DNA of 64,000 bases. It comes from Bacteroidota bacterium (GTDB lineage: Bacteria > Bacteroidota > Bacteroidia > UKL13-3). The position numbers were made by a program, and so were the translations under genes. Below, one piece after another: positions 8,981 through 57,100 of the stretch; within the stretch, counting starts at the first letter, position 1; each line of letters opens with the position of its first letter. Where the stretch lies: NCBI GenBank assembly GCA_947464275.1, contig CANHVU010000011.1, forward strand, positions 23,429 to 87,428, given 5' to 3'. The notes under the pieces are model-generated. The model did not search any database, was not told where the DNA came from, and saw only the letters and a program-made list of their open reading frames with translations.

Positions 8981-8992
8981 TAGCTTTTGTTT

Positions 8993-9364
8993 ATGAGTAA
9001 AATTGACCGTTTTGAAGATTTAGATTGCTGGAAGAAATCAAGAGAGCTGGTGAATTTAATCTTTGATATTTGCGAAAATCAAATGAAAAACAAAGATTTT
9101 TCTACTCAAGACCAAATAAAAAGAGCAGCATTATCTACTATGAACAATATTGCAGAGGGATTTGGTAGATATAGTAATAAAGAGTTTATTCGTTTTTTGG
9201 AGTATTCAGCTTCTTCTTCAATGGAAATCAGAAGTATGTTGTATATTTTATCTGACAGAAAATATATTGATAAAAATGAATTTGAAAAATGTTACAAACT
9301 AACAAATGACCTTACCAATACTACTTTAGGTTTGATTAGATATTTAAAAACAAAAATTAACTAA
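8993..9364 (+). CDS. Four-helix-bundle protein (23S rRNA intervening-sequence protein family, TIGR02436-like)
   Basis: MSKIDRFEDLDCWKKSRELVNLIFDI...IKRAALSTMNNIAEGFGRYSNKEFIRFLEYSASSSMEIRSMLYIL is the characteristic pattern of this family. The ATG at 8993 is preferred. Confidence 0.85.
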   Translation: MSKIDRFEDLDCWKKSRELVNLIFDICENQMKNKDFSTQDQIKRAALSTMNNIAEGFGRYSNKEFIRFLEYSASSSMEIRSMLYILSDRKYIDKNEFEKCYKLTNDLTNTTLGLIRYLKTKIN

Positions 9365-11105: not shown

Positions 11106-11592
11106 TTGCAAAAAAACTTATCCATACTGAAAGATATAAAAGAAATTATATCCGTTTCGAAAGACAAAGCCATTAGGGCTGTTGACAATGAGCGGGTGTT
11201 GATGTATTGGCATATTGGCAAGCGTATTTTAGAAGAAGAACAAGAAGGAAAAGAAAGAGCGGTTTATGGAGAGTATTTAATTAAAACTCTAGCAGAACAA
11301 TTAGAACCTGAATATGGAAGTGGATTTTCTTATAGGCAATTGAATTTTTTCAGGCAATTTTATAAGACTTTTCCAATTGTGAACTCAGTGCGTTCACAAT
11401 TCAGTTGGACACATTACCGCCTATTAATTTGTATTGAAAATGAGGATAAAATAAGTTTTTATATTGCTGAAAACGAAAAGTACAACAGCGGTAAACAATC
11501 AAACTATTTTTGCAAGCGAATTCCAATTATATTTGCCAACTGAAAAACAATTGATAGAAGAAATAAACAAAGAATTCGATCGAATTAAATAA
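11106..11592 (+). pseudogene. DUF1016/YhcG-type PD-(D/E)XK nuclease gene remnant with the nuclease core deleted
   Basis: The N-terminal 120 aa match the DUF1016 N-domain pattern (VLMYWHIGKRILEEEQEGKERAVYGEYLIKTLAEQLEPEYGSGFSYRQLNFFRQFYKTFP...SWTHYRLL). The frame then degenerates. A +1 frame at ~11490-11592 encodes the family-typical C-terminal tail IFASEFQLYLPTEKQLIEEINKEFDRIK*. About 200 aa of the core are missing. Confidence 0.65.
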
Positions 11593-39665: not shown

Positions 39666-39930
39666 TTCATCCACAGGCTAAAGCCATGTGGCAATTAATT
39701 TATGCTTCGTCCGAAAGCTTTCGGACTCCGCTCAGCAACCATAATTCAGCATTCATAATCTAACATTCATAATTCATAATTTCATCCATAGGCTAAAGCC
39801 ATGTGGCAATTCATTCAGCATTCATAATTCATAATTCATAATTCATAATTCATAATTCATAATTCATAATTCATGCTTCGTCCGAAAGCTTTCGGACTCC
39901 GCTCAGCAACCATAATTCAGCATTCATAAT
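39666..39930. repeat. Composite duplicated intergenic element: hairpin unit X twice and a 58-nt unit Y twice
   Basis: Unit X is ttcatcca[c/t]aggctaaagccatgtggcaatt at 39666-39696 and 39781-39811. Unit Y is atgcttcgtccgaaagctttcggactccgctcagcaaccataattcagcattcataat at 39702-39759 and 39873-39930, with 58 of 58 nt identical. Each Y contains the perfect 18-nt palindrome gtccgaaagctttcggac. Y2 overlaps the last codons of the ABC ATPase gene. Confidence 0.92.
39823..39871. repeat. Heptanucleotide microsatellite (cataatt) x7
   Basis: Seven perfect tandem units were read directly. A shorter run of the same word lies at 39765-39783. Confidence 0.95.
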
Positions 39931-40604
39931 TTAACTATGCGTCCATCTTCCATTTCAATAATGCGGTCGGTGCTGTTGGCAAATTCGTTATCGTGGGTTA
40001 CAATTAATAAAGTTTGCTTAAACTCTTGTGCCAGTTCTTGAAAAATATCGAATACAATTTTACCATTTTTTTTGTCCAAATTTCCGGTTGGTTCATCACC
40101 CATAATTATCAATGGATCGTTAATCAAGGCGCGGGCTATGGCTACACGTTGTTTTTGTCCGCCCGAAAGTTGATTGGCCATTTTCAATGCTTCGTTTTCA
40201 ATACCTAAAATCTTCAATTTTTGCATGGCTCTATGTTCTACTTCTTCTTCCGAGTATTTGCCCAATTTTAATCCAGGCAACATTACATTGCGCAGCACAC
40301 TAAACTCGTTTAACAAATAATGAAACTGAAATACAAAACCAATTTTTTCATTGCGCACCAAAGCCAACTGACCTTCTTTTTTATTCTTAGTGCTTTCGCC
40401 ATCTATTAATAATTCGCCCTGAAAATCGGTATCCATGGTAGATAAAATATAGAGCAAGGTTGACTTGCCACAACCTGATTTTCCTATAACCGACACAAAC
40501 TCACCTTTATTAACCGTAAAATTGATGTCTTTTAAAATTTGAATGGTAATTGGGTCATGAAAACTTTTATTAATTCCCTTTGCTTGTAATACTATTTGGC
40601 TCAT
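39924..40604 (-). CDS. ABC transporter ATP-binding protein (MacB/LolD type)
   Basis: Walker [10 protein letters not shown], signature [15 protein letters not shown], Walker B IIMGDEPT. Confidence 0.93.
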
Positions 40605-42947: not shown

Positions 42948-43079
42948 AGTTCAAATGTATAGTTTAGTTTTAAATAGCAGTATGATGTGGGTCAGTAAAA
43001 AAGCGTATGTTGGATTTTGGCTGCTAGCTGCTGACTAGGCCATAAAGAGGAACAGCCTGTCACACCAACAATAATGAAA

Positions 43080-43431
43080 GTCATGCCGGAGGCAACTTCT
43101 TGGCTTTAACTAATTGCTTTCTATTAACATTAACTTTGTCAACATCAAACGTCATTGCGATCGCAGAGAAGCAATCTCAAGCGAGCTTTTACATTTCATA
43201 ACTTGAGATCGCTTCGTTCCTCGCGATGACGCTAAATGCAACACCTATCATCCAAAATTCCACACGCAGTCATGCCGAAGGCATCTTCCTTTATTAACAA
43301 ACACCTTTCCTTTTAGCCTTTCACCAATGGAAGCAATTCACCTAGACCAAACGAAGTTTTGTATCGATTATTCAACTACTTTGTAGTTGCTTTTGTTGCG
43401 TGTTTCATTGTACCACGAATTTAATTCGTGG
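43080..43431. repeat. Cluster of GC-richer palindromic word elements in an 815-nt non-coding gap
   Basis: gtcatgccgGaggcaActtcT (43080-43100) and gtcatgccgAaggcaTcttcC (43269-43289) match at 18 of 21 nt. An imperfect ~30-nt inverted repeat pairs gtcattgcgatcgcagagaagcaatctcaag (43151-43181) with cttgagatcgcttcgttcctcgcgatgac (43202-43230). A 19-nt palindrome ccacgaatttaattcgtgg lies at 43413-43431. Confidence 0.85.
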
Positions 43432-43762
43432 CTATTAAAATTAAACCCCTTCAGGGTTTTTGTAACCTTACTTTTTTCATTTAAAACCGAATTCTTATTC
43501 CGCATTCAATATTTCGAACTTCGCATTCCTTTGTTTTCTATAATAACATGTAAGCCAAACCAACCACCATTTAAACTAGCTAAATGTGCTTTAATAAAAA
43601 CTAAAATTAACTTGTTTTAATAGGTGTAATAAATATGTTTGTAATACTAAAAATAAAACAAACATCCGCATAACTGCCAAAATTAGCGAGATATGCACTA
43701 TAAAGTATTGCATATCTACAAGTTGGTGACAAGCTTACAAGAAACAGCAAAAATAATAGAAC

Positions 43763-44620
43763 ATGAAAGGAAAATGTGCTTTATATGATATTGAATCGGA
43801 ATTGAAATTAAGTCACATTATTCCAAAGTTTGCTTTCGATTATTTAAAACGAACTGGAGGAAAATATTTGAGAACTTATGAAAACCCAGATCAAAGAGTT
43901 CAAGATGGCCCAAAACAATATTTATTATGCGAAAAAGCCGAACAAGAATTTGGCAAAAGAGAAAGATGGTTTTCACATAATATCTTCCTGCCATACTTAA
44001 AAGACAGCAAAATGGAGTTTGATTACGATGAGAACTTTGCATATTTCATGATCTCTATATTGTGGAGAGTTTTAGTTGATCAAACCAAATATGAGGACGT
44101 AAAAGCAGAAAAAAGATTAGATTTTTTAGAAGACGTAAAATCCGAGTGGAAAAGTTTTTTGGCGGATTCAATTTATCCCCAAAATTTTAACGACCTCAAT
44201 ATTTTATTAACTGATAGGATTACTTAACACAATACAAATGGAATAAATGTCGATTTGTATATGTCAAGAATAATTGATGCAACAATAGTTCATAATGAGA
44301 AATATACAACAGTTGCTGTTTATGTAAAATTTTTGCGTTTTATTATTTGGAGTGTGGTTAAAGGAAATCCAAATGATTGTGAAGATGTAAAAATTAAATT
44401 CACTCCTAATAAATTAAAAACACCACAAAAACTTCGTGATAATTTCTTTGGAGGTTTCATAATGAATCGCATTCAAGAAATAGACAATAAACCTAAAACA
44501 AGTGAAAAAGAACAAGAAATAATAGTCAAAGAAGTATTAAAAAATGAAGAAGAATTTTGGAATAGTGATGTTGGTAAATCATTAATCAATGATTATGAGA
44601 AAAGCAAAGCCATCCAATAA
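43763..44620 (+). pseudogene. Degenerate HNH-like (tentative) gene interrupted by a single in-frame TAA
   Basis: ORFs 43763-44227 and 44255-44620 share one frame. The only stop between them is the TAA at 44225-44227. The N-terminus KCALYD...LKLSHIIPKF...LLCEKAEQEFG loosely resembles the HNH_5-type layout. Confidence 0.5.
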
Positions 44621-44700
44621 AAATGCTAAAACTCATGGCTAGCTTTTTGGTAAATTGTCCGTTTCTTTTTCCTAGCTTAGCTCATACTAGGCTGAAAAAA

Positions 44701-44794
44701 TCCGCACTCGCTCCCATCCCACTAATGAGCATTTCAAAAGGCCTATAGTAAAAATAACTTAACCGCTTTAGCCAAAACCTAAAGCGGTTTTTTC
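44701..44794 (+). repeat. Cassette module copy A (hairpin 1 degenerate, terminator intact)
   Basis: tccgcactcgctcccatcc...gagcatttcaaaagg...aaccgctttagccaaaacctaaagcggtttttt. Hairpin 2 pairs ccgctttag (44763-44771) with ctaaagcgg (44779-44787) as a perfect 9-bp stem plus a T-run. Confidence 0.75.
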
Positions 44795-45071
44795 TTTATT
44801 TATAACTTATTTAAAAAAAAGTTTATAAATGATTCAAACACCACACTAAAAGAAATAAAGCAGAAAGTTTTTTAAAATAGGCGCATCTTTTGAGAAAGTG
44901 GTTAAGGTTTTGGAGTTAATGGCAACTTTTAGTTGATTTAAAAACCGCCATTTTTTTTGAATGATGAACCAAAACTAAGGGTTTATCAATTCGATCTAAG
45001 GTTTGATATATTCATCAATATATGGAGGGTTTAGCATTATAGTTTTGCCTTATCATTTAATCCTTAAAATC

Positions 45072-46598
45072 ATGAATATAAAAAACCACCAATTCAATTT
45101 GAATCAAATTTTAGCATTACTTTTATTTTTGTCGGCTACTTTTGTTCAAGCTCAAAATTGCAGAAAAGATACTATTACCAAGTATAGTGTAAATGCTACA
45201 AACGTAAAAACACCTTATTATATTATTATAAACGAATTTAATGCTACCAATGCTGTAATAAAACAAACCGAAAAAAACAGAGTAAGCAATGCTTGGGTAA
45301 ATTATAAAGAAGTTTCATATACTTATAATTCAAGTAATAAGCAAACAATGATTATTGAAAAAAGATGGGTAAACGAAGTTTGGGAAAACTTTTCAAAATC
45401 TGAGTTTATTTTTAATACTTCTAATTTACCATTAGAAACAAATACCTACACTTGGAACAACTCTAATAATACTTGGATGCCTAATCAAAGTGTGGTTAAA
45501 ACTTTTGATGTTAATGGAAATGAAAAATCGGTAATTTATAAAAATGCAGTATTAACTAATTGGGTTAACAATACAAAGGCTGAAATGGAATATGATGCCA
45601 ATAACAACAAAACTTTAAACACCAATTCTTTATGGGACAATACCAATATGTTATGGTTAAAACAAAATCAGCAAGCCATGACTTATACTGCAAGTAACAA
45701 GTTGGCAACTGTAGAAAGAAAAAACTGGAATTCAGGAAACAGTAGTTTCTCCCCACAACTTAAAGAAAGCTATACTTATAATAGCAGCGATTTAGAAACA
45801 ATATTATTAACTCAAAGTTGGGATGGCAGTTCATGGATTAACAATATTAGAACACTTAGAAGCTATCAAAACAGTAAACTTTCGAGCAAAACAAATCAAT
45901 CATATTTTGGACCAACTGAGGGTTTTAAATCAACCAATGTTGAATATTATGTTTACAATTCGGATGGTTTACTAACTGAAAAACTTCTTAAAAACTTTGT
46001 GGTGCCTAGCACTACAGAGGTAAATGTGAACAAAGAAAATTACACCTACAATACAGATAAATTAATTACCAAATTTGAAAAATATAATTGGAATACTTCA
46101 ACTACGAGGTATGCCATTAGTAATTCGGTAAATTACGGTTATAATACTGCTAAGAAAAAAACACTTGAAGAGAGTTTAAGTTACAACGCAACCTACATGT
46201 CTATGCTTCCTAATGAAAAACAAACATACGAATTTGATTCCAATGGTGTGGAAGTTGCATACGAAAATTCATTTAATTTTAGTCCTAGCCAAGGCCGATA
46301 CCAAACAATAAATAGGGAAGAATATGCATGTGGCAAAGCAAGTTCAACATCAATAAAACCATTAACTGTTAAAGAGTCGCTTGTTTACCCTAATCCTGCT
46401 TCAAACAGGGTAAATTTGGAAATTATGAAAAAAAGTGAGGTTTATATTTTTAACAATTTTGGCAAATTGATGTTTTCAAGCCAAGCAGAAAATGAACTAT
46501 TAAATATTGATTTATCTAATTATATCGATGGTATTTATTTTGTTCAAATTAAAAATGAATTTGGGTCTATTACTCAAAAACTAAATATAGTAAAGTAG
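45072..46598 (+). CDS. Secreted repeat protein with a T9SS C-terminal sorting domain
   Basis: The start is taken at MNIKNHQFNLNQILALLLFLSATFVQAQ. About 45-aa W/N/Y-rich units recur (W.N....E..YTYN..N). The C-terminus reads LVYPNPASNRVNLEI...GIYFVQIKNEFGSITQKLNIVK. Confidence 0.75.
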   Translation: MNIKNHQFNLNQILALLLFLSATFVQAQNCRKDTITKYSVNATNVKTPYYIIINEFNATNAVIKQTEKNRVSNAWVNYKEVSYTYNSSNKQTMIIEKRWVNEVWENFSKSEFIFNTSNLPLETNTYTWNNSNNTWMPNQSVVKTFDVNGNEKSVIYKNAVLTNWVNNTKAEMEYDANNNKTLNTNSLWDNTNMLWLKQNQQAMTYTASNKLATVERKNWNSGNSSFSPQLKESYTYNSSDLETILLTQSWDGSSWINNIRTLRSYQNSKLSSKTNQSYFGPTEGFKSTNVEYYVYNSDGLLTEKLLKNFVVPSTTEVNVNKENYTYNTDKLITKFEKYNWNTSTTRYAISNSVNYGYNTAKKKTLEESLSYNATYMSMLPNEKQTYEFDSNGVEVAYENSFNFSPSQGRYQTINREEYACGKASSTSIKPLTVKESLVYPNPASNRVNLEIMKKSEVYIFNNFGKLMFSSQAENELLNIDLSNYIDGIYFVQIKNEFGSITQKLNIVK

Positions 46599-46620
46599 TT
46601 TTCTTTTTTCATGTGTAGAA

Positions 46621-46651
46621 GTCGTAAGTTTAATTACTTGCGGCTTTTTTT
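46621..46651 (+). terminator. Intrinsic terminator
   Basis: Stem gtcgtaagt (46621-46629) / acttgcggc (46636-46644) with two G.U pairs, then a T-run at 46645-46651. Confidence 0.65.
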
Positions 46652-46672
46652 ATGAGCACATTTAGGCGAATT

Positions 46673-46838
46673 TTCTACACACGCTCGCATCTTGCGAGTG
46701 TTCATTTAACTAAGCCTCTAGCTTGTATAAACTTCAACTGCTTAAGCTAAAACTTAAGCGGTTTTTTTTGTGTTTTTTAATTCAAACAAACTATTATTTT
46801 TCCTTTGTTTTTTTAGGTTTTATGTAGATGTTTACAAC
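46673..46838 (+). repeat. Cassette module copy B (complete: hairpin 1, terminator hairpin 2, AT box)
   Basis: Hairpin 1 pairs acgctcgca (46681-46689) with tgcgagtgt (46693-46701). Hairpin 2 pairs ctgcttaag (46738-46746) with cttaagcgg (46753-46761) and is followed by a T8 run. The AT box attatttttcctttgtttttttaggttttatgtagatgtttacaa ends at 46837. The copy is about 85% identical to copy C over ~160 nt. Confidence 0.9.
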
Positions 46839-46885
46839 AAGTTTGAAATAACTATAAATAAAATTTAAAGCAAGAATTTAAAAGG

Positions 46886-47677
46886 ATGTTTTTCAAAAAA
46901 AAGAAACTAACCGAAACAGAATTTGCAAAAAAGTTTGCAAATCAAATAACTGAATCAATAAGCGGTTTGCAAATTATTTCAATTAATGAACTTGAAATAA
47001 AAACGGAATTTAATGATTCGAAGGAAATTACTCACTACTTAGACAATTGCTATAGTGAGTATTTGAATGACCCAAAAGATATAAAAGAAATTATGAATAG
47101 GTATTTAAATGCAGCTAAGTCGCTTTATCTACCAAAGGAACCAATAAATACAGACAGAATTGTACCCGTTATAAAAGACCATAGATTTGTAAGTCAGTTG
47201 AAAGAATTAAATTCAAGCTTTGAAGACAACCATGTTTATGAAAAATACAATTCTGAATTATATTTGTTTTTTGCAGAAGATAAAGAACATAGTATAAACT
47301 ACATAACTCAAGACGATTTTAAATCACTTGCAATATCTTATGAAAGTTTAAAATCAAAGGCTATTGAAAACTTAGAAAACATGATTTCAATAGAATGTCA
47401 TGGAGAAAATGGTTATTTTATGCTAGTTGCTGGCGGAAATTATGAAACAAGTTTAATTTTACTCGACATTTGGGATAAAGATAATTTTGATGTAAAAGGT
47501 GAAATAATTATTGGAATACCCTCCCGCGATTTATTAATTATTACTGGTAAAGACGATTCAGAAAACAAGGAAAAACTTCAAAATATTATTACCGAAATAA
47601 ATGAATCTGGAGACCATTTAGTATCAAAAGAAATGTTTGAATACATCAATGGAAAATTTGAGAAAATACTAGCATAA
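46886..47677 (+). CDS. Cytoplasmic protein, DUF1444/YtpQ-like (tentative)
   Basis: 263 aa with no signal peptide. The layout and motifs (VPVIKDHRF..., LYLFFAEDKEHSINYITQDDFKSL...AIENL, GIPSRDLLII) resemble the DUF1444 family by eye. Confidence 0.5.
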   Translation: MFFKKKKLTETEFAKKFANQITESISGLQIISINELEIKTEFNDSKEITHYLDNCYSEYLNDPKDIKEIMNRYLNAAKSLYLPKEPINTDRIVPVIKDHRFVSQLKELNSSFEDNHVYEKYNSELYLFFAEDKEHSINYITQDDFKSLAISYESLKSKAIENLENMISIECHGENGYFMLVAGGNYETSLILLDIWDKDNFDVKGEIIIGIPSRDLLIITGKDDSENKEKLQNIITEINESGDHLVSKEMFEYINGKFEKILA

Positions 47678-47690
47678 GTGTTAGCTTATG

Positions 47691-47796
47691 GTGCTCATAT
47701 TTCATAATAAATTTAACCTCCAATATCTATTGTAGCTTATAAAACCATCATTTATTTTTACTTTGTTTTTTTTAGGTTTTATATAGATGTTCACAA
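47691..47796 (+). repeat. Cassette module copy F (front half degenerate, AT box conserved)
   Basis: The AT box atttatttttactttgttttttttaggttttatatagatgttcacaa lies at 47750-47796. The upstream part matches the module only loosely (tgtagcttataaaacc versus tggcttgtataaatttt aacc), and there is no terminator hairpin. Confidence 0.7.
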
Positions 47797-48007
47797 AAGA
47801 TGGTATGAATACATCGGGATACACACACTGACGTTAAGCATAACCAAAAAAACTCACAATTATAAGTAATTCTTAAATACTCAAAATGAATGGAAATATT
47901 TACAGCTTTACAAGGAGATAAGTATCCATTACATTACAAAAAATGGAAATTAAATTTGAAGAATTTAGCCATTATATGTTTAGTTTTGTTATACATTTCA
48001 ACTTTCA

Positions 48008-49411
48008 ATGAAACGATTATTTTTAATTGCTATCCTATTTTTTAATGCTTTGTGTAATTCTTTTGCGCAATATGTAGTTGCTCCTGATAGTGTTATCCAT
48101 AAAGCCTTAGAGTGCTTTCAACCAAATAGAAAACTACCTGTTTTTTATTATGATAAAGGTAAAAGTACAAAGGCTGTTACCGATACTTTCTGGATTTGGA
48201 ATACCACCAAACGAGATATTTCTGTTTATTTAAACCCATATTACCACAAAGATTGGAATATGCCCAGCATAGTAAAAGCCAATAGTAAAGTTCCCTTGGT
48301 GTACTACGAAGTATTTGAAAATTTTGAAGGTTACTATTATCCTATTAATAAAATAGCAAGAATAGAATATGGCAATGAAAATTTAACTGTTACTCTATAC
48401 ACTCAACTCGTAAATAAAAATGCTACTAAGCGTAAAATGCCTGATGGTAGTTTGCAATTTACCTTTCCGTTAGAAAGTTTAAAGCACAATTATTTATATA
48501 CTTTTCCAAATGGTATAATGAAAGAAGCTGGCTGCAAACTAAATGCAGATAGCAGTAAAATTGGAGGAATTACCACAAAAGCAAGATTTGGCGATGGCTA
48601 TGATGTAGCATATCATGGTAAAGAATTTAGCTTCGAATTAATGAATGCAGACATCAAGGATTGTAAAGTATATTATAGAAATGAGTTGCATGCAAAAGAC
48701 TATCCTATTTATATAACAAGCAATAAATTCAAATACCTATTTCCTGAAAAAGCCAGCGAACTAAAAATAGTAAAAGATAGTAGCAGTGTTATATACCCTT
48801 TGGTAGATGGGGCAAATAATAGAACTTTTCAATTGTACCTTATTAAACCTAACGAACCTTATGCGATTGTAGATCATATAAAACGACCTTTGGATTACAA
48901 ACACCATCAATATGCTGTATTTTATAATGCGCTGCCTAGTATAGAAAAGAACAAAACCACTTTTCGTGATTATCAAAAAGGCTACCCCGATTTAAAAATA
49001 TACAATATCCACTCCAAAACCGTTTTTGATTTAGAAAATTTAAGTGAGAACAGCAGAATAAAAATCTTGCAAGAGTTGCAAAATGATAGCTTAGTAAGAT
49101 GTATTATTAAACTAATTACTAAAACAGATGGCAAAGATAATTTTCAAATTTTTGATAATAGCATATACTGTTTTTTCCCAACTACTGTGCAACAAGAAAA
49201 TTTAATAGAAAAAGCAAAACGGTTTAATTTTGATTATATGACAACCGAATTCATAACTGAATATAAACACTGTTTTAAATACGGTAGTAAATTGTGGGAC
49301 GAAAAAGCAATGCAACAATTTGTTAAGTTTTACGAAAGTTATCCCTATTACGATTTTAAAATTAACTATTATATAATTGCAGAACCCGACATAAACAATT
49401 TAGAAAAATAA
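48008..49411 (+). CDS. Hypothetical secreted protein
   Basis: 467 aa. The signal peptide is MKRLFLIAILFFNALCNSFAQ. No family recognised. Confidence 0.6.
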   Translation: MKRLFLIAILFFNALCNSFAQYVVAPDSVIHKALECFQPNRKLPVFYYDKGKSTKAVTDTFWIWNTTKRDISVYLNPYYHKDWNMPSIVKANSKVPLVYYEVFENFEGYYYPINKIARIEYGNENLTVTLYTQLVNKNATKRKMPDGSLQFTFPLESLKHNYLYTFPNGIMKEAGCKLNADSSKIGGITTKARFGDGYDVAYHGKEFSFELMNADIKDCKVYYRNELHAKDYPIYITSNKFKYLFPEKASELKIVKDSSSVIYPLVDGANNRTFQLYLIKPNEPYAIVDHIKRPLDYKHHQYAVFYNALPSIEKNKTTFRDYQKGYPDLKIYNIHSKTVFDLENLSENSRIKILQELQNDSLVRCIIKLITKTDGKDNFQIFDNSIYCFFPTTVQQENLIEKAKRFNFDYMTTEFITEYKHCFKYGSKLWDEKAMQQFVKFYESYPYYDFKINYYIIAEPDINNLEK

Positions 49412-49431
49412 TAAACATTTTTGGCACTCAC

Positions 49432-49500
49432 TATCCGCAGAGTTAGCAAAGCTATAATAAGGCTTGAAAAATAATTTTACTTTGTATTTTTAGGTTGAAT
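49432..49500 (+). repeat. Cassette module copy E (short relic)
   Basis: ctatccgcagagttagcaaagctataataaggcttgaaaaataattttactttgtatttttaggttgaat retains the ccgcag start, the ggcttg word and a shortened AT box. Confidence 0.6.
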
Positions 49501-49574
49501 AGGCATACCTTAGCGGTTAATTAATTGCAAAAGTTTAATATATCGAACTACGAAAAAAAAAATATTAAGTGACG

Positions 49575-49787
49575 ATGAAAAAAACAATTTCACATTGGTT
49601 AATAGCGATAATTTTAATGCTTTCATTATCGCAATGTACAAAGGACGGCTGCATTGAAAATAACAAGAGTTGCAATTGCACCAAACAATATGATCCTGTT
49701 TGCGGGTGCAACGATAAAACGTATGGCAATTCGTGTGAAGCTGAATGCAAAGGAATAACTAATTATACAAAAGGAGCCTGCAAATAA
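49575..49787 (+). CDS. Small Kazal-type protease-inhibitor domain protein (probable lipoprotein)
   Basis: CNCTKQYDPVCGCNDKTYGNSCEAECKGITNYTKGAC fits the Kazal pattern C-x-C-x6-PVCG-x4-TY-x-N-x-C-x3-C-x(n)-C. The N-terminal signal ends LSLSQC. The ATG at 49575 is preferred over the GTG at 49569. Confidence 0.8.
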   Translation: MKKTISHWLIAIILMLSLSQCTKDGCIENNKSCNCTKQYDPVCGCNDKTYGNSCEAECKGITNYTKGACK

Positions 49788-49810
49788 AAACAATTAATAA
49801 ATCACTTCAA

Positions 49811-49979
49811 TTCTCCGCAGTCGCTCGCATCTTGCGAGTGAGCATTTTATAAAGTCTCTGGCTTGTATAAATTTTAACCGCTTAAACAAAAACTAAAGCG
49901 GTTTTTTTAAGTGTTTTTGTATTTCAAGCAAACAATTATTTTTACTTTGTTTTTTTAGGTTTTATGTAGATGTTTACAA
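49811..49979 (+). repeat. Cassette module copy C (complete)
   Basis: Hairpin 1 pairs tcgctcgca (49821-49829) with tgcgagtga (49833-49841). Hairpin 2 is ccgctt...aagcgg followed by a T7 run (to ~49908). The AT box attatttttactttgtttttttaggttttatgtagatgtttacaa ends at 49979. Confidence 0.9.
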
Positions 49980-50064
49980 TAGGATTTTGAATAACAAACT
50001 AGAGAAATAAAACAGCTATGACATAAAGCTCATAGCAGCTTAAAAATAGAACTAAAAGAAAAAC

Positions 50065-50634
50065 ATGAAACTAAATAAAAGAATTATAGCTTTACTGATA
50101 GGGTTCGCGGTTATTGGGTCACTAACTTACTATGTTCTCACAAGTGAAAAAGAAAAGGCAGCAGTTACAACCGAAACACCTATTACCAATCCGGAGCAAG
50201 ATACAGTTGCTACTGCTCAGGTAATTCAGGAAGATACCATGTCGTTCGAAAAAATTCAAAAAGCGCTGAACATTGATGGTGAAGAATTTAAACTAACCAA
50301 AGTTAAAGGAGTTTATACCAATTCAGCTAAAGACAAAGTGCTGATTATAAAGGAAGATGTATGGAAAAAGATGATTCAAAAAATACAGGAAAAACTTCCA
50401 GTGATAGCCGAAGATTGTAATTCAAAAGAGAAAATGCCAAACTTAAAAGAATATAAATTTGTTGGATTACTCACCTACTTTACCGATAGTAAAGACAGTA
50501 AAATAACCACTGCATACAAAGCGATTGAAATTAGAAATGGCAAAGCAAAAACATTTGCAGGTGGCGGAATTTGTTGCGATTGTGAGGGAGAACCTCTTAT
50601 AACGCAACAAACAGATGCAGTAATTGATAAGTAA
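50065..50634 (+). CDS. Hypothetical membrane-anchored protein
   Basis: 189 aa. The N-terminal TM helix is IIALLIGFAVIGSLTYYVL. The C-terminus has a Cys cluster, GGGICCDCEGE. Confidence 0.55.
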   Translation: MKLNKRIIALLIGFAVIGSLTYYVLTSEKEKAAVTTETPITNPEQDTVATAQVIQEDTMSFEKIQKALNIDGEEFKLTKVKGVYTNSAKDKVLIIKEDVWKKMIQKIQEKLPVIAEDCNSKEKMPNLKEYKFVGLLTYFTDSKDSKITTAYKAIEIRNGKAKTFAGGGICCDCEGEPLITQQTDAVIDK

Positions 50635-50641
50635 TTTCACC

Positions 50642-51775
50642 ATGAAAAAGTATTTCCCCTCCATACATTTTTTTACTTTATGTGCCTTATTAATTTTTGC
50701 CACTGCTTGTAACGAAGCAGTTAAAAAAGATGCACTAAAAGAAAAGGAACATCCTAAATTGATAAAAACCATTGGAGACCCAAAGTATGGTAATGTTCAA
50801 TGCATTTTGGAAGATAAAGCCGGTAACCTTTGGTTTGGTACTACCGAAAATGGACTTTATAAATTTGATGGAAAAATATTTAGTAGGTATTTAGTGAACG
50901 ATGGCCTAAACAGCAATAATATTTCTTGTATTTTAGAAGATAAAGAAGGAAAAATTTGGATAGGTACACACGCAGGACTTTGTATTTACAATCCATCCGC
51001 TTCTATAAAAAAAGGTGATAAACTATTTACCGAAATAAAAATTCCTTTACCTAAAAACCTACCACTTAATAAAAACGAATACTACCTAAACTCGCATTGG
51101 GTATTTAATATGATGCAAGCAAAAAACGGAAAAATTTGGTTTGCAACCATAGATGGTGTTTATATTTACGATGGTAAAACATTTACACATTTTCCAATTA
51201 ACAAGGCCTCGGGTGGCTTTTTAAGCAGCAATTATAATATGGAACGTATATTTGAAGACAATGCTGGTAATATTTGGTTTGGAGGACGAGGAAATGAAGG
51301 TGTTTATAGATACGATGGTAAAACTATCACCAACTTTAAATTAGAAGACTTATTCCAAAATGGACCAAAGCCAAAACCGCATCATTGGGCTTGGCCTCAA
51401 TTGCAAGATAAAAATGGAAATATTTGGTTCAGCAATTGGGGTGGTGTTTACCGCTATAATCCTTCGGGTTTGGCAAATAAAGAAGTTAATCCATTTACCA
51501 GTTTTACTAAAAAAGATGGATTATCTGGTGGCGTTACCAAAATAATAGAAGATAAAAACGGAAACCTCTGGCTTGGCGGTGATGCAGGCTCTGGCCTTAG
51601 CCGTTATGATGGAAAATCTTTTACTCGATTTACAAAAAAAGATGGCTTACTTAATAATAGCATTTGGTCTATTTTAGAAGATAAAAACGGAAATATTTGG
51701 GTAGGTACAAGAGAAACAGGCTTATACCTTTTTGACGGAAAATCATTTATTACTTATTCGGAATACAAAGAGTAA
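50642..51775 (+). CDS. Lipoprotein with two-component-regulator-propeller type repeats
   Basis: The start is MKKYFPSIHFFTLCALLIFATAC (lipobox). Six or more repeats of the GN(I/L)WFGT..GLY.(F/Y)DGK.F type are present. Confidence 0.75.
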   Translation: MKKYFPSIHFFTLCALLIFATACNEAVKKDALKEKEHPKLIKTIGDPKYGNVQCILEDKAGNLWFGTTENGLYKFDGKIFSRYLVNDGLNSNNISCILEDKEGKIWIGTHAGLCIYNPSASIKKGDKLFTEIKIPLPKNLPLNKNEYYLNSHWVFNMMQAKNGKIWFATIDGVYIYDGKTFTHFPINKASGGFLSSNYNMERIFEDNAGNIWFGGRGNEGVYRYDGKTITNFKLEDLFQNGPKPKPHHWAWPQLQDKNGNIWFSNWGGVYRYNPSGLANKEVNPFTSFTKKDGLSGGVTKIIEDKNGNLWLGGDAGSGLSRYDGKSFTRFTKKDGLLNNSIWSILEDKNGNIWVGTRETGLYLFDGKSFITYSEYKE

Positions 51776-51852
51776 GTTAAGTAGTGGATTGGTTTATTGC
51801 CTATAGGTTCATCAAAACAAGCTTTTTAAACCTTACCAAATAATAGAAAATT

Positions 51853-52386
51853 ATGGAAACACTTTCAACCTTATTAAATTATACATTTTATGCTTTTACT
51901 CTGTTGGCAATTTTGCTTTTTATAGGTTATTGGATTGTTCCAACTTACAGACCAACTATTAGCAAATTAATTAAACTATCATACATTTATCTATTGATTA
52001 CTTCACTCATTTACCTAGGGCAATCTATCTTTCAATTTATTACTTATTTGGGAGAAAATGACGAATGGGAACAATATGCGTTTACCAACCGACTCTTTGG
52101 ACCTTTTTGGTTTGCCTATTGGGGTGCGTTGTTTTGTAAAGGTTTCATACCTCAAATTTTATGGATAAAAAAAATCAGACAAAACATTTGGACAGCTATT
52201 ATACTAGTTCCATTCTTACTCTTTAATTTTTATATACCATGGCTTTATTTGTTAAGCACAGATTCACCGTCATCAATTGGTATCATTAATCTTGACTTTA
52301 CTAAGGTGTTTATTTTCTTTATCATTTCTACAATTTTATTGGTGGTTTCATTTTTTATTATTGAAAAAAAAGTAATCAATAAGTAA
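51853..52386 (+). CDS. Hypothetical polytopic membrane protein
   Basis: 177 aa with five hydrophobic helices. No family recognised. Confidence 0.55.
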   Translation: METLSTLLNYTFYAFTLLAILLFIGYWIVPTYRPTISKLIKLSYIYLLITSLIYLGQSIFQFITYLGENDEWEQYAFTNRLFGPFWFAYWGALFCKGFIPQILWIKKIRQNIWTAIILVPFLLFNFYIPWLYLLSTDSPSSIGIINLDFTKVFIFFIISTILLVVSFFIIEKKVINK

Positions 52387-52420
52387 GATTATGATGTTTA
52401 AAAAACTTTAATTAATCGAA

Positions 52421-52936
52421 TTAATACTCTATTTGCTTTACTCTTAACCATTCACTTTTATTTATTTCATTGGTATCAATTGGAGTTGCATACCTAAAAT
52501 AAGGCGTAAAATTACTTACTTTAAAAAAACCTGGAGTTGAAGGACTGCTATCGTTAGCACCGCAGCCAAAACTACGTTTTTCAATTTTAATAGTTGATTG
52601 CTGTTTATGTTCAAACAAAACTTTATCGGTGGTCCAAGCACACATTCCTCCTACAAATATCATGATAGTCATTATAGCAATAGAACCAAAACAAGCAAAA
52701 ATGGTAAGTATTATTTTAGAAATTATTTCAACCCAAGATTCTTTCTTTTTTATAGTTCCAGTTAAGGTAAAAACTATGGCAATTGGTACCCCATAAAACC
52801 TAATGGAATAATACAAATGTTCAACCTTTTGCGAAGCAAATTCTAAAGGAACAAAATTACTTAATACTGCAGCTCCTAGCCAAAAGATTAGCATAAACAA
52901 GGCTGTTCTATAAATTACTTTTAACAATAGCTGCAT
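52421..52936 (-). CDS. Hypothetical membrane protein
   Basis: 171 aa with four hydrophobic helices and then a soluble C-terminal part. It is convergent with 51853-52386. Confidence 0.5.
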   Translation of the reverse strand: MQLLLKVIYRTALFMLIFWLGAAVLSNFVPLEFASQKVEHLYYSIRFYGVPIAIVFTLTGTIKKKESWVEIISKIILTIFACFGSIAIMTIMIFVGGMCAWTTDKVLFEHKQQSTIKIEKRSFGCGANDSSPSTPGFFKVSNFTPYFRYATPIDTNEINKSEWLRVKQIEY

Positions 52937-53227
52937 GGGTTAATTTTGAGGTATTAAATACTCTATTTCAAAAAATAAATGATTATCTAATAAATATTTT
53001 TACTTCTAAATTCTTGGGTTGTTTTTAACCCTTAAAATTGATTTTTTCCTTTGATTAAATAAGATAATTCAAGCATAATTATAGCTTATTTTATTCAATA
53101 TTATTAATAGTATCCAAACAATTTTTTGATAGTTTGAATACGTTTTTTTATACGATAATACACTAGATTCAAAACATGTATACTACAGTATTTTATGATA
53201 CCTTTTGTTAATTGATTAAAAAACAGA

Positions 53228-53632
53228 CTAACGAATTGGTTGTTTTATAGCATTCATTTTTATTTTGATTGACTCATACAATTCCATGGTTTTATTATCC
53301 ATTTTACTTTTTGCTGAATCCAAATGTTGCTCCATTGAATTGTATTTATTTAATGTTTGTAATGAATTGTTATTCCAATGGTTTGTAGTATCTAATAAAT
53401 TTGAATGTTTTTCAATAATGGTATCAACAACAACTTCATCGGGCTCTGTTGGCGATTTAGGCACTTCCATAAATAGGGTATCAACTCCTGTTAAATACTC
53501 AGTATTAGCAGCCAATATGGAGTCAGTATATGCCTTGAAAGAATTTACTTCATCAATAATTTCATTTTTTTCGGTTCCACAAGCAAAAATTAAAGTAATA
53601 ACTGCAATTGCTAAATGATTTGTATTTTTCAT
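53228..53632 (-). CDS. Hypothetical lipoprotein
   Basis: 134 aa. The lipobox is AIAVITLIFAC. The rest is predicted to be helical. Confidence 0.55.
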   Translation of the reverse strand: MKNTNHLAIAVITLIFACGTEKNEIIDEVNSFKAYTDSILAANTEYLTGVDTLFMEVPKSPTEPDEVVVDTIIEKHSNLLDTTNHWNNNSLQTLNKYNSMEQHLDSAKSKMDNKTMELYESIKIKMNAIKQPIR

Positions 53633-53702
53633 AGTTTGTATTTTTTAACTAATTGCAAATAAGTCAAAATAAATTTTAGGGCAAGCAAAAAAATTAGTTT
53701 CC

Positions 53703-53786
53703 AAACTCGCTCGCATCTTGTGAGTGAGCATTTCATCAAGCTTATGGCTTAAAACAGCCTCAGCTAAAACTTAATCGGTTTTTTTA
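53703..53786 (+). repeat. Cassette module copy D (hairpin 1 intact, terminator stem degenerate, no AT box)
   Basis: Hairpin 1 pairs ctcgctcgca (53706-53715) with tgtgagtgag (53719-53728), 10 bp including two G.U pairs. It continues catttcatcaagcttatggctt...ctaaaacttaatcggttttttt. Confidence 0.8.
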
Positions 53787-53940
53787 CAAAAACGCTTCCT
53801 ACTATCAATAAATTAATCAATATGACTTTTTAATCCTAAAGGTATCGTACAAGTATAGTGGCAGCGCATTTCGACAAGGTCAATGTCCGACCTTTAACAA
53901 ATCAATCGCGCCTTGCGTGATAACAATACAACAGTTCAAC

Positions 53941-54030
53941 CATCCAACAATTAAAACTTCAACACCTCGAACTTCCAAACATCAACATATCAAACTTTAA
54001 CACTTTAAAAACTTCAACACTCAAAATCAT
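53941..54030. repeat. Word repeat block (aacttcaacac / actttaacac family)
   Basis: aaacttcaacacctcgaacttccaaacatcaacatatcaaactttaacactttaaaaacttcaacactcaaaatc. It uses the same word family and orientation as 9397-9437. Confidence 0.8.
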
Positions 54031-54129
54031 TAACAATTTGATTAAACTATATTAATGTATTAGTTACTCAGTGTTAACCATTCGATTTTATTAAAACCCT
54101 CTTTTTGCAGTTCATAATTAACATAAAAT

Positions 54130-57100
54130 ATGAACAACTCTATTTACAAATTATTGGGTTTAATGCTGTTTTCGTTATGCAGTATTTTAACCAAAGCGCA
54201 AATCAATGCGCAATTTTTAGGGCGATATTCTATTGGAACCTATAATTCCAATGGCGGTGTAGCCGAAATCTCTGCTTTCGATCCTGCATCCAAACGCATG
54301 TTTGTGATTAACGGACCCGACACCACTGTTAAAATTGTAAACATTGCCAATCCTGCAAGTCCAGTTTTAATAGCTACACTTTCTATTAAACCTTATGGTA
54401 TTGATATCAATTCAATTGCTTGTAATAAAAAGGGTTTAATAGCCATGGCTGTAGTTGACTCGAACGGAAAAACCAATCCAAGTAGTATAGTATTTACCGA
54501 CATTAACGGAAACTTTATTAGCAAGGTAAAAGCAGGTGCCAATACCGATCATATCATTTTTACTTCTGACGGAAAAAAATTATTATGTGCCAACGAAGGC
54601 GAACCAAATAATGGTTACACCATTGACCCAGAAGGTTCAATCTCTATTATTGATTTAAGCAATGGAGCTGCTAATTTAACGCAAGCCAGTGTACAAACTG
54701 CTGGTTTCACTGCTTTTAATGCTCCAGCAACCATTGATTCTAAAATAAAAATTACTGGCCGAATACAATCTGGAGGCAGTTTTTTACGCAACTCTACCGT
54801 AGCTGAAGATATAGAACCCGAATATATTGCCATATCTGAAGATAATTCAACTGCTTGGGTTACTTGCCAAGAAAACAATGCCTTGGCTGTGGTTAATATT
54901 AACACTGCAACCGTTACTTCATTATTACGTTTAGGATTTAAAAACCATAATTTATCAGGCAATGGATTAGACCCTTCAGACCAATCAGGTGCAGGTAATA
55001 CCGCTTCAATTAGTATTGCTAATTGGCCAGTATTTGGCATGTACCAACCAGATGGAATTTCTAGCTACAGAGTTGGTGGTCAAACTTTTTTAGTTACTGC
55101 CAATGAAGGTGATGCCCGCGCAGATTGGGGAGCAGCCAATAATGAAGAAGTACGTGTTAACAATGCTTCTTTTATATTAGATACCGTTAAATTTGGTGGT
55201 GCTTCAAATGTGAGTGCTTTAAAAGCAAATGCTGGTTTAGGCAGACTAAATGTTACAAACCGCTATGGCGATTTTAACAACGATGGTAAATTTGATAGCA
55301 TATTTACTTTTGGTGCACGTTCATTTTCTATTTGGGATGGTGCTACTGGTGCATTGGTTTGGGATAGTAAGGACGATTTTGAACAACGCACTGCTGCTAT
55401 GTTTCCAAGCAATTTTAATGCTGGACATACAACTAATTCATTAGATGATAGAAGTGATAACAAAGGACCTGAACCAGAAAGTGTAACAATTGGTAAAATA
55501 TTAGATAGTACTTATGCATTTGTAGGCCTTGAGCGTATTGGTGGTTTTTTTGTTTATAATATCACCAATCCCAATTCACCTTATTTTGTTCAATATATAA
55601 ATACCCGTAATTTTAGTGTAACTCCTAACCAAGCTAATTTAGCCACTGTTGGCGATTTAGGACCTGAGGGAATTGTTTTCATTCCGAGAAACGAAAGTCC
55701 AAATGGAAAAGATTTAATCTTGTTATCAAATGAAGTTTCAGGTACAGTTGCAATTTATCAGGTTAACTCACGCAGTGCATTCCAAATGCAAGTATTACAT
55801 GCATCAGATATGGAAAGCGGATTAGATGCACCCATTGATGCACCTAACTTTGCTGCTGTTTTAGATACTTTAGAAGGTACATACCCAAATACAGTAAAAC
55901 TAGCATCAGGCGATTGCTTTATTCCTAGTCCATTTTTAAGTGCTGGTGAAGATCCAAGCATGCAAACTCCTTTACGCAATACTGCATCGTTTTATTACAG
56001 CGGTTCGCAAGCTGTTAGAGCTGCTATTGGAAGAACCGATGTTGCCATGATGAATATTATGGGTTTTCAAGGTTCGGCCTTTGGTAACCATGAGTTTGAT
56101 TTAGGTACTTCGGAAGTAAACAGCATTATTGGTGTTGATATAAGAAGTAATGGTGCCGACAAACGTTGGATTGGTGCTCAATTTCCTTATTTGAGTGCTA
56201 ACTTAAACTTTAGTAACGATGTTAATTTAAGCTATTTAACCACCACACAACGTTTATCGGTTGATAGTTTTAAAACTTCTCCAACCATTACAAATAATAA
56301 CCAAAAGAAAGGTATTGCGCCTTCTGCAATTATTGAAATGAATGGCGAAAGAGTAGGTATAGTTGGTGCCACTACACAGGTATTAGCCTCTATTTCATCT
56401 CCAGGTGCTACTACAGTTATAAGTGGTGGAAGTGATAATATGCCAGCATTGGCAGCGGTATTACAACCAGTTATTGACTCATTAAAAGCAATGGGTATCA
56501 ATAAAATTATTGTAATGAGCCATTTGCAACAATTAGCTAATGAAAAAGCTTTAGCACCGTTATTGAAAGGTGTTGACATTATTATTGCTGGTGGTTCACA
56601 TTCATTATGTGCCGATGGCAATGACAGATTAAGAGCTGGAATTCCAGTTGCAGATAGATATCCAATTTTAACTGTTAACAACGATAATGAACCATTGGCT
56701 ATTTTAAACACAACTAGTGAGTGGAAATACATTGGTCGTTTTGTTTGCGATTTTGATTCATTAGGAAGATTATTACCAAACTTATTAGATTCAAACATAA
56801 ATGGTGCATATGCTGCCGATACAGCTATGGTTACTAGCTTATGGGGAACATACAGTGCTGCCTTTGCAAACGGAACAAAAGCAGGTGCAGTAAGAACTTT
56901 AACTACTGCTATTTCGGCTGTAATTAACTCAAAAGATGGTAACAAATTTGGTAAGTCAAATGTGTTTTTAGAAGGTAGAAGAAACTTAGTAAGAACAGAA
57001 GAGACCAACTTTGGAAATTTAACTGCCGATGCCAACCTATGGTATGCTCGTCAGTATGATAACCAAGTAAGAATTTCTATAAAAAATGGTGGCGGTATTC

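Follow-up and report, generated by a model that had tools for sequence, protein, structure and literature searches.

The accessory block described here is best explained as an array of cassettes separated by a repeated module that acts as transcriptional punctuation, the copies of which, as direct repeats, double as homology through which cassettes are gained, lost and exchanged by RecA-type recombination; we hold this reading with roughly even confidence. The module copies lie at 44.7-53.8 kb of the window, i.e. the whole 64-kb stretch of DNA analysed, in the interval that separates a MacAB-type efflux operon from the giant gene of a T9SS-secreted nucleotidase in an uncultured, low-GC, T9SS-bearing Bacteroidota species (Table 1).

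Table 1. Features of the island and its flanks (window coordinates).
Feature	Position	Strand	Remarks
Left non-coding flank	42948..43611	.	many REP-like palindromes; 77-88% conserved among same-species variants
P_left	43612..43641	+	exact match to Bacteroidetes-type promoter, TTG-N19-TAtgTTTG, directed into island
Leader	43642..43725	+	common to L027 and L036, ahead of three different first genes
First unit ORF	43763..44620	+	single in-frame TAA at 44225-44227; no family match
Module A (A-type)	44701..44794	+	80 bits; TCCGCA edge and terminator intact; hairpins 1 and 2 decayed; no AT box
T9SS-sorted repeat protein (Por_Secre_tail)	45072..46598	+	
Module B, complete	46674..46842	+	111 bits; hairpin 1, hairpin 2, terminator, AT box
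DUF1444-like protein	46886..47677	+	
Module F	47691..47800	+	5' part decayed relics only; AT box intact, 47744-47800
467-aa secreted protein	48008..49411	+	no family match
Module E (E-type)	49434..49517	+	TCCGCA kept; hairpin 1 5' arm and loop lost; terminator lost; AT box degenerate
70-aa Kazal-domain lipoprotein	49575..49787	+	
Module C, complete, consensus type	49814..49983	+	115 bits; 95-97% identical to two L027 copies
189-aa membrane-anchored protein	50065..50634	+	only cargo gene common to another variant (L027, 92.5% nt identity)
Reg_prop lipoprotein	50642-51775	+	
177-aa membrane protein	51853-52386	+	
171-aa ORF, probable gene	52421-52936	-	
Segment	53034..53140	+	homologous to 3' trailer directly after 189-aa gene in L027/L002
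134-aa lipoprotein-like, probable gene	53228..53632	-	ahead of copy D
Module D, terminal copy	53700..53786	+	90 bits; no AT box; orthologous to last module of L001 and L027
Right non-coding flank	53787..54129	+	shared with L001 (84%) and L027; runs to nucleotidase gene start

That the repeat is real, and far beyond chance, was confirmed in several ways. With filters off, a covariance model built from the module, a check proposed in the initial annotation, scored the four hairpin/terminator copies (A-D) at 80-115 bits, the next-best match in the 64 kb reaching 21 bits; an HMM of the AT box matched four copies (B, C, F and E) and nothing else in the window, and all matches of both kinds are on the plus strand at the positions first reported. 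The hairpin core CGCTCGCATCTTGCGAGTG occurs, with at most one mismatch, at 46682, 49822 and 53708, and the AT-box core at 46798, 49475 and 49940, the shuffle expectation being 0 in each case; the AT box of F, which has one extra T, was detected by nhmmer. Copies B and C, originally put at about 85% identity, are 87.3% identical over 158 nt. A full module spans ~170 nt and has sharp ends (TCCGCA ... TTTACAA), and many modules are hybrid, truncated or converted. All six of the copies or relics first proposed were found, but A and D are without the AT box, and the 5' parts of E and F are degraded.

The plus-strand RNA of the module folds into three hairpins (z = -3.5 to -5.2, compared with -1.5 for the minus strand). 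The hairpin, terminator and AT box of the anatomy initially proposed hold for B and C; the supposed spacer, by contrast, is a second conserved stem-loop (AAGCC-UCU-GGCUU), extendable to 11 bp. In hairpin 1 a 10-bp stem closes a UCU loop, and hairpin 3 is the intrinsic terminator. Double changes affect seven of the ten pairs of hairpin 1, a level of covariation reached by none of 500 shuffles; a G·U pair is kept in 10 of 11 copies. The C>T change in hairpin 1 of module D leaves a G·U pair, and a pair that L012 has compensated to A-U is present in copy L027-M as the C·U intermediate. The covariation and G·U pairs fit the plus strand only.

Such an RNA would end the upstream transcript after two conserved stem-loops, and hairpins 1 and 2 may themselves have a role in 3'-end protection or protein binding. 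Terminator-like matches coincide with hairpin 3 of A and B. Some 25 nt past the terminator, a local promoter of the -33/-7 type (TTTG-N19-GAtgTTTA) would restart transcription for the next unit. Promoter activity of the AT box is suggested by its gapless alignment with P_left, a canonical Bacteroidetes promoter of the same architecture that marks the island's left edge; all variants conserve P_left, and in L019 it is duplicated. Moreover, homology among module copies ends right after the putative -7 box. The AT box differs from the TAnnTTTG -7 element at two positions, and its link to P_left was not recovered by nhmmer. Ahead of module B, the T9SS gene is followed by a terminator of its own (46620-52), and a canonical TAnnTTTG box belonging to this gene lies 32 nt upstream of it; the 467-aa gene has two such boxes, 27 and 57 nt upstream. 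The -7 mismatches and the boxes belonging to these two downstream genes were counted against the punctuation reading.

The block itself, called accessory in the initial annotation, is a strain-variable insertion hot spot with fast-changing contents. Its GC content is 27-33%, against 33-40% in the flanks. At least six gene contents, almost wholly different, occupy the site among strains with efflux genes that are ~95% identical in nucleotides; in more distant relatives, with an adaptor protein 73-84% identical, the site is empty and the two genes between which the block is inserted lie adjacent, 170-310 nt apart. The interval is not invariant across related genomes, an outcome that would have refuted the initial proposal. 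Three other variants (L001, L012 and L027) also have the module at gene boundaries; it is absent from the first 5 kb, the part available, of the island type represented by L019/L021/L022. The cargo was described as eight plus-strand ORFs, which is largely correct, except that the 171-aa and 134-aa ORFs are probable minus-strand genes. No cargo gene matched an immunity or defence family.

Outside the island the module is scarce. Neither covariance model nor HMM detected a copy in the remaining 53 kb of the window, as first noted, and ~130 kb of related loci searched in the same way gave no further copies except two weak relatives of hairpins 1 and 2 at non-island loci (L015 1586-1672 and L034 5596-5728). 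That in L015, a diverged copy behind a core cytochrome c/peroxidase operon, has six compensated pairs and retains both the G·U position and the loop. Exact-pattern scans of GTDB representative genomes and JGI metagenomes matched only L001 and L002, both variants of the same island, which does not fit with a module dispersed genome-wide, though the genome-wide count depends on an exact 22-nt pattern, which misses diverged copies, and on ~200 kb of lineage read. Neither the plasmid and phage collections nor Rfam gave a module match.

The copies, as direct repeats of 100-170 nt, therefore offer homology for ordinary RecA-type recombination. A crossover between two copies would delete or circularise a unit, a single crossover at any copy would insert a unit bearing one copy, and gene conversion would homogenise copies, the outcome being an integron-like array without an integrase. 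The expectation that strains differ by whole units with breakpoints inside the module was borne out in part: some breakpoints are at module edges or inside, others lie elsewhere, and there is no one fixed module position. Junctions within the module occur in the hairpin 1 5' arm, after hairpin 2 and after the T-run. The 134-aa gene is an insertion relative to L027, and its site coincides exactly with the 5' boundary of the terminal module; by contrast, the Reg_prop/177-aa/171-aa block (2.4 kb, 50642..52936), also an insertion relative to L027, is not module-bounded, and first-gene replacements are likewise outside any module. Left-edge breakpoints vary too (43643 in L019, 43663 in L012 and ~43725 in others).

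Other features cited in support of homologous recombination, which these variable breakpoints and the lack of a recombinase suggest as the exchange mechanism, are a chimeric A-type/consensus module in L027, a Campbell-like duplication of a 300-nt P_left segment flanking an inserted operon in L019, and, in L001, a tandem duplicate relic (hairpin 3 plus 17 nt) beside the terminal module. Three variants have orthologous terminal modules, but in the L001 copy the hairpin 2-3 part is of consensus type, which points to conversion. Homologous recombination would shuffle module-bearing units; it explains neither the first joining of unrelated genes to the module nor why at least 10 copies share a 5' edge within ~3 nt.

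A rival proposal, which we regard as unlikely, is that the island is a dedicated cassette-capture system in which the module, especially its TCCGCA edge and the hairpin-1 palindrome, is the attachment site of a site-specific recombinase encoded elsewhere in the genome; such a system would operate in the manner of integrons, of CALINs serviced in trans or of Xer-dependent dif modules. The sharp 5' edge is common to copies of four subtypes, all co-oriented, and hairpin 1 forms a 10-3-10 palindrome in which a mismatch is conserved; the high similarity and species specificity of the array recall the Vibrio cholerae repeats. The 5' parts of both A-type and E-type follow unrelated genes in different strains (that of E, which is derived, does so in L001), the 134-aa insertion fits the terminal module edge, and a 35-nt E-type core is common to two strains although the sequence to its left and right is unrelated, which looks more like a discrete recombination site. 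However, a search for integrase, transposase and resolvase domains found none in window ORFs of at least 100 aa, in agreement with the initial annotation, nor was a recombinase present among the called genes of the complete L027 island. The scattered junctions and left-edge breakpoints also argue against capture, G·U pairs function on one strand only, and a terminator and promoter within the site are the reverse of attC logic. In L012 and L015 the two arms of the hairpin vary freely in concert, which suits base pairing better than a protein-binding sequence. Of the two roles first suggested, cassette capture or shared regulation, the terminator-plus-promoter half is the better supported, and nothing found points to a dedicated capture machinery.

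Somewhat less probable again is that hairpin 1, hairpin 2 and the terminator constitute a 3'-UTR-derived small RNA or protein-binding 3' element with sibling copies, the neighbours of which turn over for unrelated reasons. The strand-specific covarying fold, the conserved UCU loops, the compensated L015 copy and the 95-97% identity of consensus-type copies are all consistent with this, and it could hold alongside the punctuation and recombination reading. On the other hand, several copies persist despite the loss of their hairpins, namely A, E, F and, in L027, D; there is no shared promoter ahead of the module, and Rfam gave no match; module D has no plus-strand gene directly ahead, being preceded by a minus-strand gene, and so may be untranscribed. 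The AT box and the co-location with cassette boundaries would also be left unexplained. A selfish dispersed repeat (REP, MITE or Correia-like), locally amplified by happenstance, would account for the discrete ends and the L015 and L034 relics, and further REP-like palindromes are carried by the genome; it is nevertheless improbable given the single orientation throughout, the restriction to the island in the window, related loci and genome collections, the lack of plasmid or phage matches, and copies that read without terminal inverted repeats or target duplications. Although the window is a MEGAHIT metagenome contig, chance similarity or an assembly artefact is extremely improbable, as shuffles give no matches, the same structure is seen in independent assemblies (JGI 3300071516 and Logan runs) and module copies are present in four further assemblies.

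The island resembles integron arrays and CALINs (attC clusters without an integrase) in its unrelated, mostly orphan and mainly co-oriented genes, parted by a species-specific, highly similar structured repeat, in its rapid strain-to-strain turnover and in having a promoter at one end. By contrast with integrons, which are very rare in Bacteroidetes (PMC9024848), it lacks IntI, its units carry terminator and promoter signals, and its crossover positions are not fixed. The repeat is not attC, as first suspected: instead of a single long imperfect palindrome it forms three separate hairpins, and it has no RYYYAAC/GTTRRRY cores. The rAID-1 clusters of Bacteroidales, for which gene acquisition has been suggested (bioRxiv 10.1101/471110), are similar in their Bacteroidota host, co-directional low-GC genes and repetitive intergenic sequences. 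Identity with them was rejected because the defining 5' XerD-like tyrosine recombinase is missing; the island also differs in lacking immunity or defence cargo and in a host that is not a gut Bacteroidales.

In the Xer-dependent dif modules of Acinetobacter plasmids, gene modules lie between short conserved sites and the housekeeping recombinase is encoded elsewhere. The island likewise has discrete gene modules with conserved bounding sites, but hairpin 1 does not resemble the 28-bp XerC/XerD site, and the island sites are co-oriented rather than alternating, and ~170 nt long including transcription signals. Neisseria minimal mobile elements comprise differing gene sets between the same two conserved genes, exchanged presumably by homologous recombination. 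They share with the island a core-gene-flanked hot spot and no mobility genes; whereas those elements have no internal punctuation, the island is subdivided by an internal repeat that is conserved across variants.

Among genomes whose efflux genes are ~95% identical at the nucleotide level, the accessory island between the MacAB-type efflux operon and the gene for the giant T9SS-secreted nucleotidase has at least six different contents (table). Relatives were collected by way of the adaptor protein encoded in the efflux operon; in those with 73-84% identical adaptors the site is empty, with a nucleotidase-type gene lying 170-310 nt from the adaptor gene. All-against-all BLAST reveals that the variants have in common only the flanks, the modules, a unit carrying a 189-aa gene (window and L027) and a methyltransferase unit (L001 and L012). 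The GC content is 27-33% within the island compared with 33-40% outside it. The interval is thus not syntenic and invariant in relatives; had it been so, the proposal of the initial annotation would, by its own terms, have failed. With its conserved flanks, cargo that differs between strains and an empty site in relatives, the locus is a core-gene-flanked hot spot of the minimal-mobile-element type, to which an internal conserved punctuation repeat is added. The window corresponds to contig k141_834099 of the metagenome assembly ENA ERZ27263775; Logan contigs and an independent JGI assembly show the same arrangement.

Module copies in the window and contents of the island in related loci
Feature	Locus	Positions	Description	Basis
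Module A	window	44701-44794	copy of one unit	repeat finding and alignment
Module B	window	46674-46842	copy of one unit	repeat finding and alignment
Module C	window	49814-49983	copy of one unit	repeat finding and alignment
Module D	window	53700-53786	copy of one unit	repeat finding and alignment
Island content 1	window		own cargo	
Island content 2	L027		gene X, 189-aa gene, 41-nt tandem array	
Island content 3	L001		816-aa methyltransferase-like gene, 187-aa and 97-aa genes, CDF transporter	
Island content 4	L012		methyl-directed restriction enzyme, split methyltransferase, YkuD	
Island content 5	L019/L021/L022		TM2-DUF2752-MamF-M48, 136-aa gene, IS fragment	
Island content 6	L034-L036		Reg_prop lipoprotein	

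Most of the cargo is orphan, and in Pfam, NCBIfam and PADLOC none of it matches immunity functions, the type of cargo known from rAID-1 clusters. The first island ORF (43763-44620) is split by a single in-frame TAA (44225-44227) into parts of 154 and 121 aa, a split that is also called in independent assemblies. The CDF/HMA cation transporter of L001 (3057-3854) has ~80% amino-acid-identical homologues in MAGs labelled Bacteroidota, Ignavibacteria, Chitinophagaceae and others, a distribution that suggests a widely transferred metal-resistance gene. A homologue search with this transporter gave no long contig extending the L001 island, and one with the nucleotidase N terminus, for right-hand island ends, returned three proteins, none informative. 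The GTDB title of L001 (CAZGVO010000002.1), 'uncultured Bifidobacterium sp.', looks wrong given its low GC content and a T9SS-sorted nucleotidase orthologous to that of the window.

The repeat between the units is real and lies where the initial annotation placed it. The hairpin core CGCTCGCATCTTGCGAGTG is found at three sites (46682, 49822 and 53708, with at most one mismatch), as is the AT-box core (46798, 49475 and 49940), the expectation from shuffles being 0 in both cases; repeat finding and alignment also identify the AT box, the putative promoter at the 3' end of the module, as common to copies B, F, E and C. A covariance model built from nine copies and run unfiltered over the whole window scores A-D at 80-115 bits and everything else at 21 bits or below, and an AT-box HMM matches only B, C, F and E in the window, so that within the 64 kb the motif is limited to the island, as proposed. 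Over 158 nt, copies B and C agree at 87% of positions, close to the ~85% claimed. The four-part structure ascribed to the module holds for B and C, but A is without hairpins 1 and 2 and the AT box, and D is without the AT box; in copy E both the terminator and the 5' arm of hairpin 1 have been lost, and of the 5' part of copy F no more than relics are left. The spacer described as conserved is so, but folds as a second stem-loop. Nor are all the genes on the plus strand, as had been thought, since two probable minus-strand genes (52421-52936 and 53228-53632) precede D.

Beyond the window, an exact 22-nt pattern, which diverged copies escape, was found at a single locus (L001) when one genome per GTDB species was searched and on a single contig (L002) in JGI metagenomes. 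Both are other versions of the window's island: the end of L001 is formed by the module D orthologue together with the nucleotidase gene, and L002 covers part of the island that was recovered complete as L027. The covariance model, which covered the window and ~130 kb of non-redundant related loci, finds strong copies in the latter only within the island (two in L001, four in L027 and one in L012), together with two weak relics outside it, one behind a cytochrome c/peroxidase operon in a relative's locus (L015 1586-1672, 34 bits) and one at a second variable intergenic site (L034 5596-5728, 32 bits). Since strong copies are confined to the island and the other matches are two weak relics, the module is not a generic genome-wide repeat, an outcome that would have refuted the initial proposal; the hairpin family, however, is not absolutely exclusive to the island. 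A dispersed REP or MITE family, with copies scattered in both orientations, is very unlikely: there are no extra copies in the window, the 22-nt pattern scan of the genome collection found island copies only, and inspection of 12 copies and their flanks revealed neither terminal inverted repeats nor target-site duplications. BLASTN of module C in distant mode against plasmid and phage collections gave no match; two matches of the 17-nt hairpin core in viral collections lie inside high-GC phage coding sequence and are ascribed to chance.

On the plus strand the 5' part of the module folds into three hairpins, i.e. hairpin 1 (CUCGCUCGCA-UCU-UGCGAGUGAG), hairpin 2 (AAGCC-UCU-GGCUU, extendable to 11 bp) and hairpin 3, a stem followed by a U-run, with fold z-scores of -3.5 to -5.2 compared with -1.5 for the reverse strand. 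Changes on both sides are seen in 7 of the 10 pairs of hairpin 1 (12 distinct copies), a level reached by none of 500 shuffles and one that collapses in slid controls, although the alignment was fitted to the model, with L012 and L015 supplying the greater part of the signal. In 10 of 11 copies a G·U pair occupies one position of hairpin 1, the only hairpin change in module D (C>T) makes another G·U, and copy L027-M shows C·U, an intermediate state, at a pair for which L012 has A-U. Since G·U pairs are functional only in the plus-strand sequence, selection has acted on the sense RNA or on the top strand of the DNA. Rfam covariance models gave nothing at gathering score in the window and nothing at E≤1 in the island, and a tRNA/tmRNA search found nothing, so an attachment site at a tRNA 3' end has no support. 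Attenuators of the ANTAR or riboswitch type were considered for the hairpins and rejected, as the loops have 3 nt, not 6, and the fold offers no visible alternative partner for the terminator. Hairpins 1 and 2 may act as an RNA element at the 3' end of transcripts; the phylum Bacteroidota is not known to have Hfq or ProQ, and in such a setting the two conserved UCU-loop hairpins are a candidate for a new element of this kind.

A GC-containing stem with a T-run on the coding strand, characteristic of intrinsic terminators, is flagged by a scan at hairpin 3 of A and B, and the same pattern occurs in the folds of C, L001b and L027b, the stem of D being weakened. Promoters of the Bacteroidetes primary sigma factor consist of -33 TTG and -7 TAnnTTTG elements spaced by ~19 nt; P_left, at the left edge of the island (43612-43641), is an exact match (TTG-N19-TAtgTTTG) that is kept in all variants. 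Several core genes of the window have a TAnnTTTG box 12-25 nt in front of them, which suggests that the organism uses promoters of this type. The AT box (TTTG-N19-GAtgTTTA) has 6 of the 8 positions of the -7 element and aligns with P_left gaplessly and in register, though nhmmer links neither to the other, and similarity between AT-box copies ends directly after the putative -7 element. From the terminator-like hairpin 3 and the promoter-like AT box, we infer that the module is a predicted terminator plus promoter, i.e. transcriptional punctuation. A 7-bp hairpin (GCTATGA...TCATAGC, 50015-50036) in the leader of the 189-aa gene is kept in L027 and is marked by the scan as terminator-like on the minus strand.

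In having co-oriented heterogeneous units with a conserved repeat between them, the island resembles integrons and CALINs, but there is no adjacent IntI tyrosine recombinase. An attC site is a single imperfect palindrome with R''/L''-L'/R' boxes and RYYYAAC/GTTRRRY cores, whereas the module has three separate hairpins and inspection of the copies found no GTTRRRY or RYYYAAC at its edges; the difference from attC suspected from the outset is thus upheld. Further, integron cassettes are mostly promoterless and served by a common Pc; the island does have a common P_left, but its units are separated by intrinsic terminators and have promoter-like boxes as well. In Bacteroidetes, integrons are very rare (PMC9024848). 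The rAID-1 clusters of Bacteroidales are defined by a 5' XerD-like recombinase (10.1101/471110); the island shares with them at least two co-directional low-GC downstream genes and repetitive intergenic sequence, but no recombinase domain is present in it.

The best explanation, to which we give about an even chance, is that the island is a strain-variable hot spot in which a terminator-promoter module between units would also supply homology for host recombination. Unit junctions fall at varying positions in the module. The window, L001 and L027 have orthologous terminal modules; the hairpin 2-3 part is of a distinct 'cagctaaaacttaatcg' version in the window and L027 but of the consensus type in L001, which points to conversion. 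In L027 a fragment of the A-type (a derived 5' part) is fused to a consensus module, and in L001 a relic of hairpin 3 plus 17 nt stands in tandem with the terminal module. A ~300-nt P_left segment occurs twice in direct orientation in L019 (1075-1365 and 4070-4450), around the TM2-DUF2752-MamF-M48 operon; this would be the exact product expected from single-crossover insertion of a circle. The spread of junctions, the hybrid modules and the duplications together argue for ordinary homologous recombination between copies.

It may be that a more specific process is also acting, as all copies have the same 5' edge at TCCGCA, E-type and A-type derived 5' parts stand behind unrelated genes in different strains, and a minus-strand 134-aa gene is inserted exactly at the terminal-module edge relative to L027. 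A recombinase encoded elsewhere and acting at the module is, in our estimation, unlikely. The absence of a recombinase in view has been borne out: Pfam finds no integrase, transposase or resolvase domains in window ORFs of ≥100 aa or among the genes of L027's complete island, and there is no integrase domain in the precomputed Pfam results for 30-60 kb. The initial annotation had asked whether strains differ by whole units with breakpoints inside the module; some breakpoints are at the module, but their positions vary and some differences lie outside modules. Thus a 2.4-kb Reg_prop/177/171 block is inserted directly after the stop codon of the 189-aa gene without involvement of the module, and behind a common leader the first gene has been exchanged, the left breakpoint falling at three different positions. 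Rather improbable, too, is that the array is a previously undescribed Bacteroidota gene-capture platform, in which whole transcription units would move in and out at a structured ~170-nt site by an unlinked recombinase or a host pathway recognising the TCCGCA/hairpin-1 end. Were it so, the array would be analogous to an integron without being related to IntI or attC, each unit having its own promoter and terminator; the only comparable Bacteroidota arrays are rAID-1, which depend on a linked recombinase.

The observation in the initial annotation is confirmed and its interpretation partly supported. Near-complete turnover of cargo at ~95% efflux-gene identity, with one module and no recombinase, suggests either that simple direct repeats of transcription signals suffice for an integron-like platform via host recombination, or that the phylum has an unknown recombination system; either bears on the organisation and insulation of accessory genes in environmental Bacteroidota.

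At the nucleotide level the nucleotidase gene (54130-60096) has just 79-81% identity with its L027 and L001 orthologues, compared with ~95% for the efflux operon on the other side of the island, and it encodes a hypervariable T9SS surface protein adjoining the hot spot, with internal 357-nt repeats at 58392-59816. The left flank (42948-43600) has many REP-like palindromes, GTCATGCCGAAGGCATCTTCC occurring twice, and a long inverted repeat at ~43151-43235; in L023 (125-1084) it is interrupted by an IS110-family (DEDD) element, which is unrelated to the module. A 41-nt unit, cactttttagcaaattgtaagcttacactgagcgttttttt, is repeated ~12 times in tandem on the minus strand of L027 (6800-7290), the array running from the T-run of one module to the next module, and one stretch like it lies 3' of the Reg_prop gene in L036 (1-60). 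Between the ABC ATPase and pentapeptide genes, two 69-nt direct repeats (97% identical) surround a TTCATAA microsatellite (39696-39935); the same intergenic site in L034 (4981-6467) has different genes, a 203-aa gene and a PIN-domain gene, and carries a weak module-like relic (tcgcatcttacgagtga). Further away, small accessory insertions (8987-9364 and 11106-11543) interrupt a catabolic cluster between the genes for homogentisate dioxygenase and HPPD; they consist of a gene for a 23S-rRNA-intervening-sequence protein and an N-terminal DUF1016 fragment.
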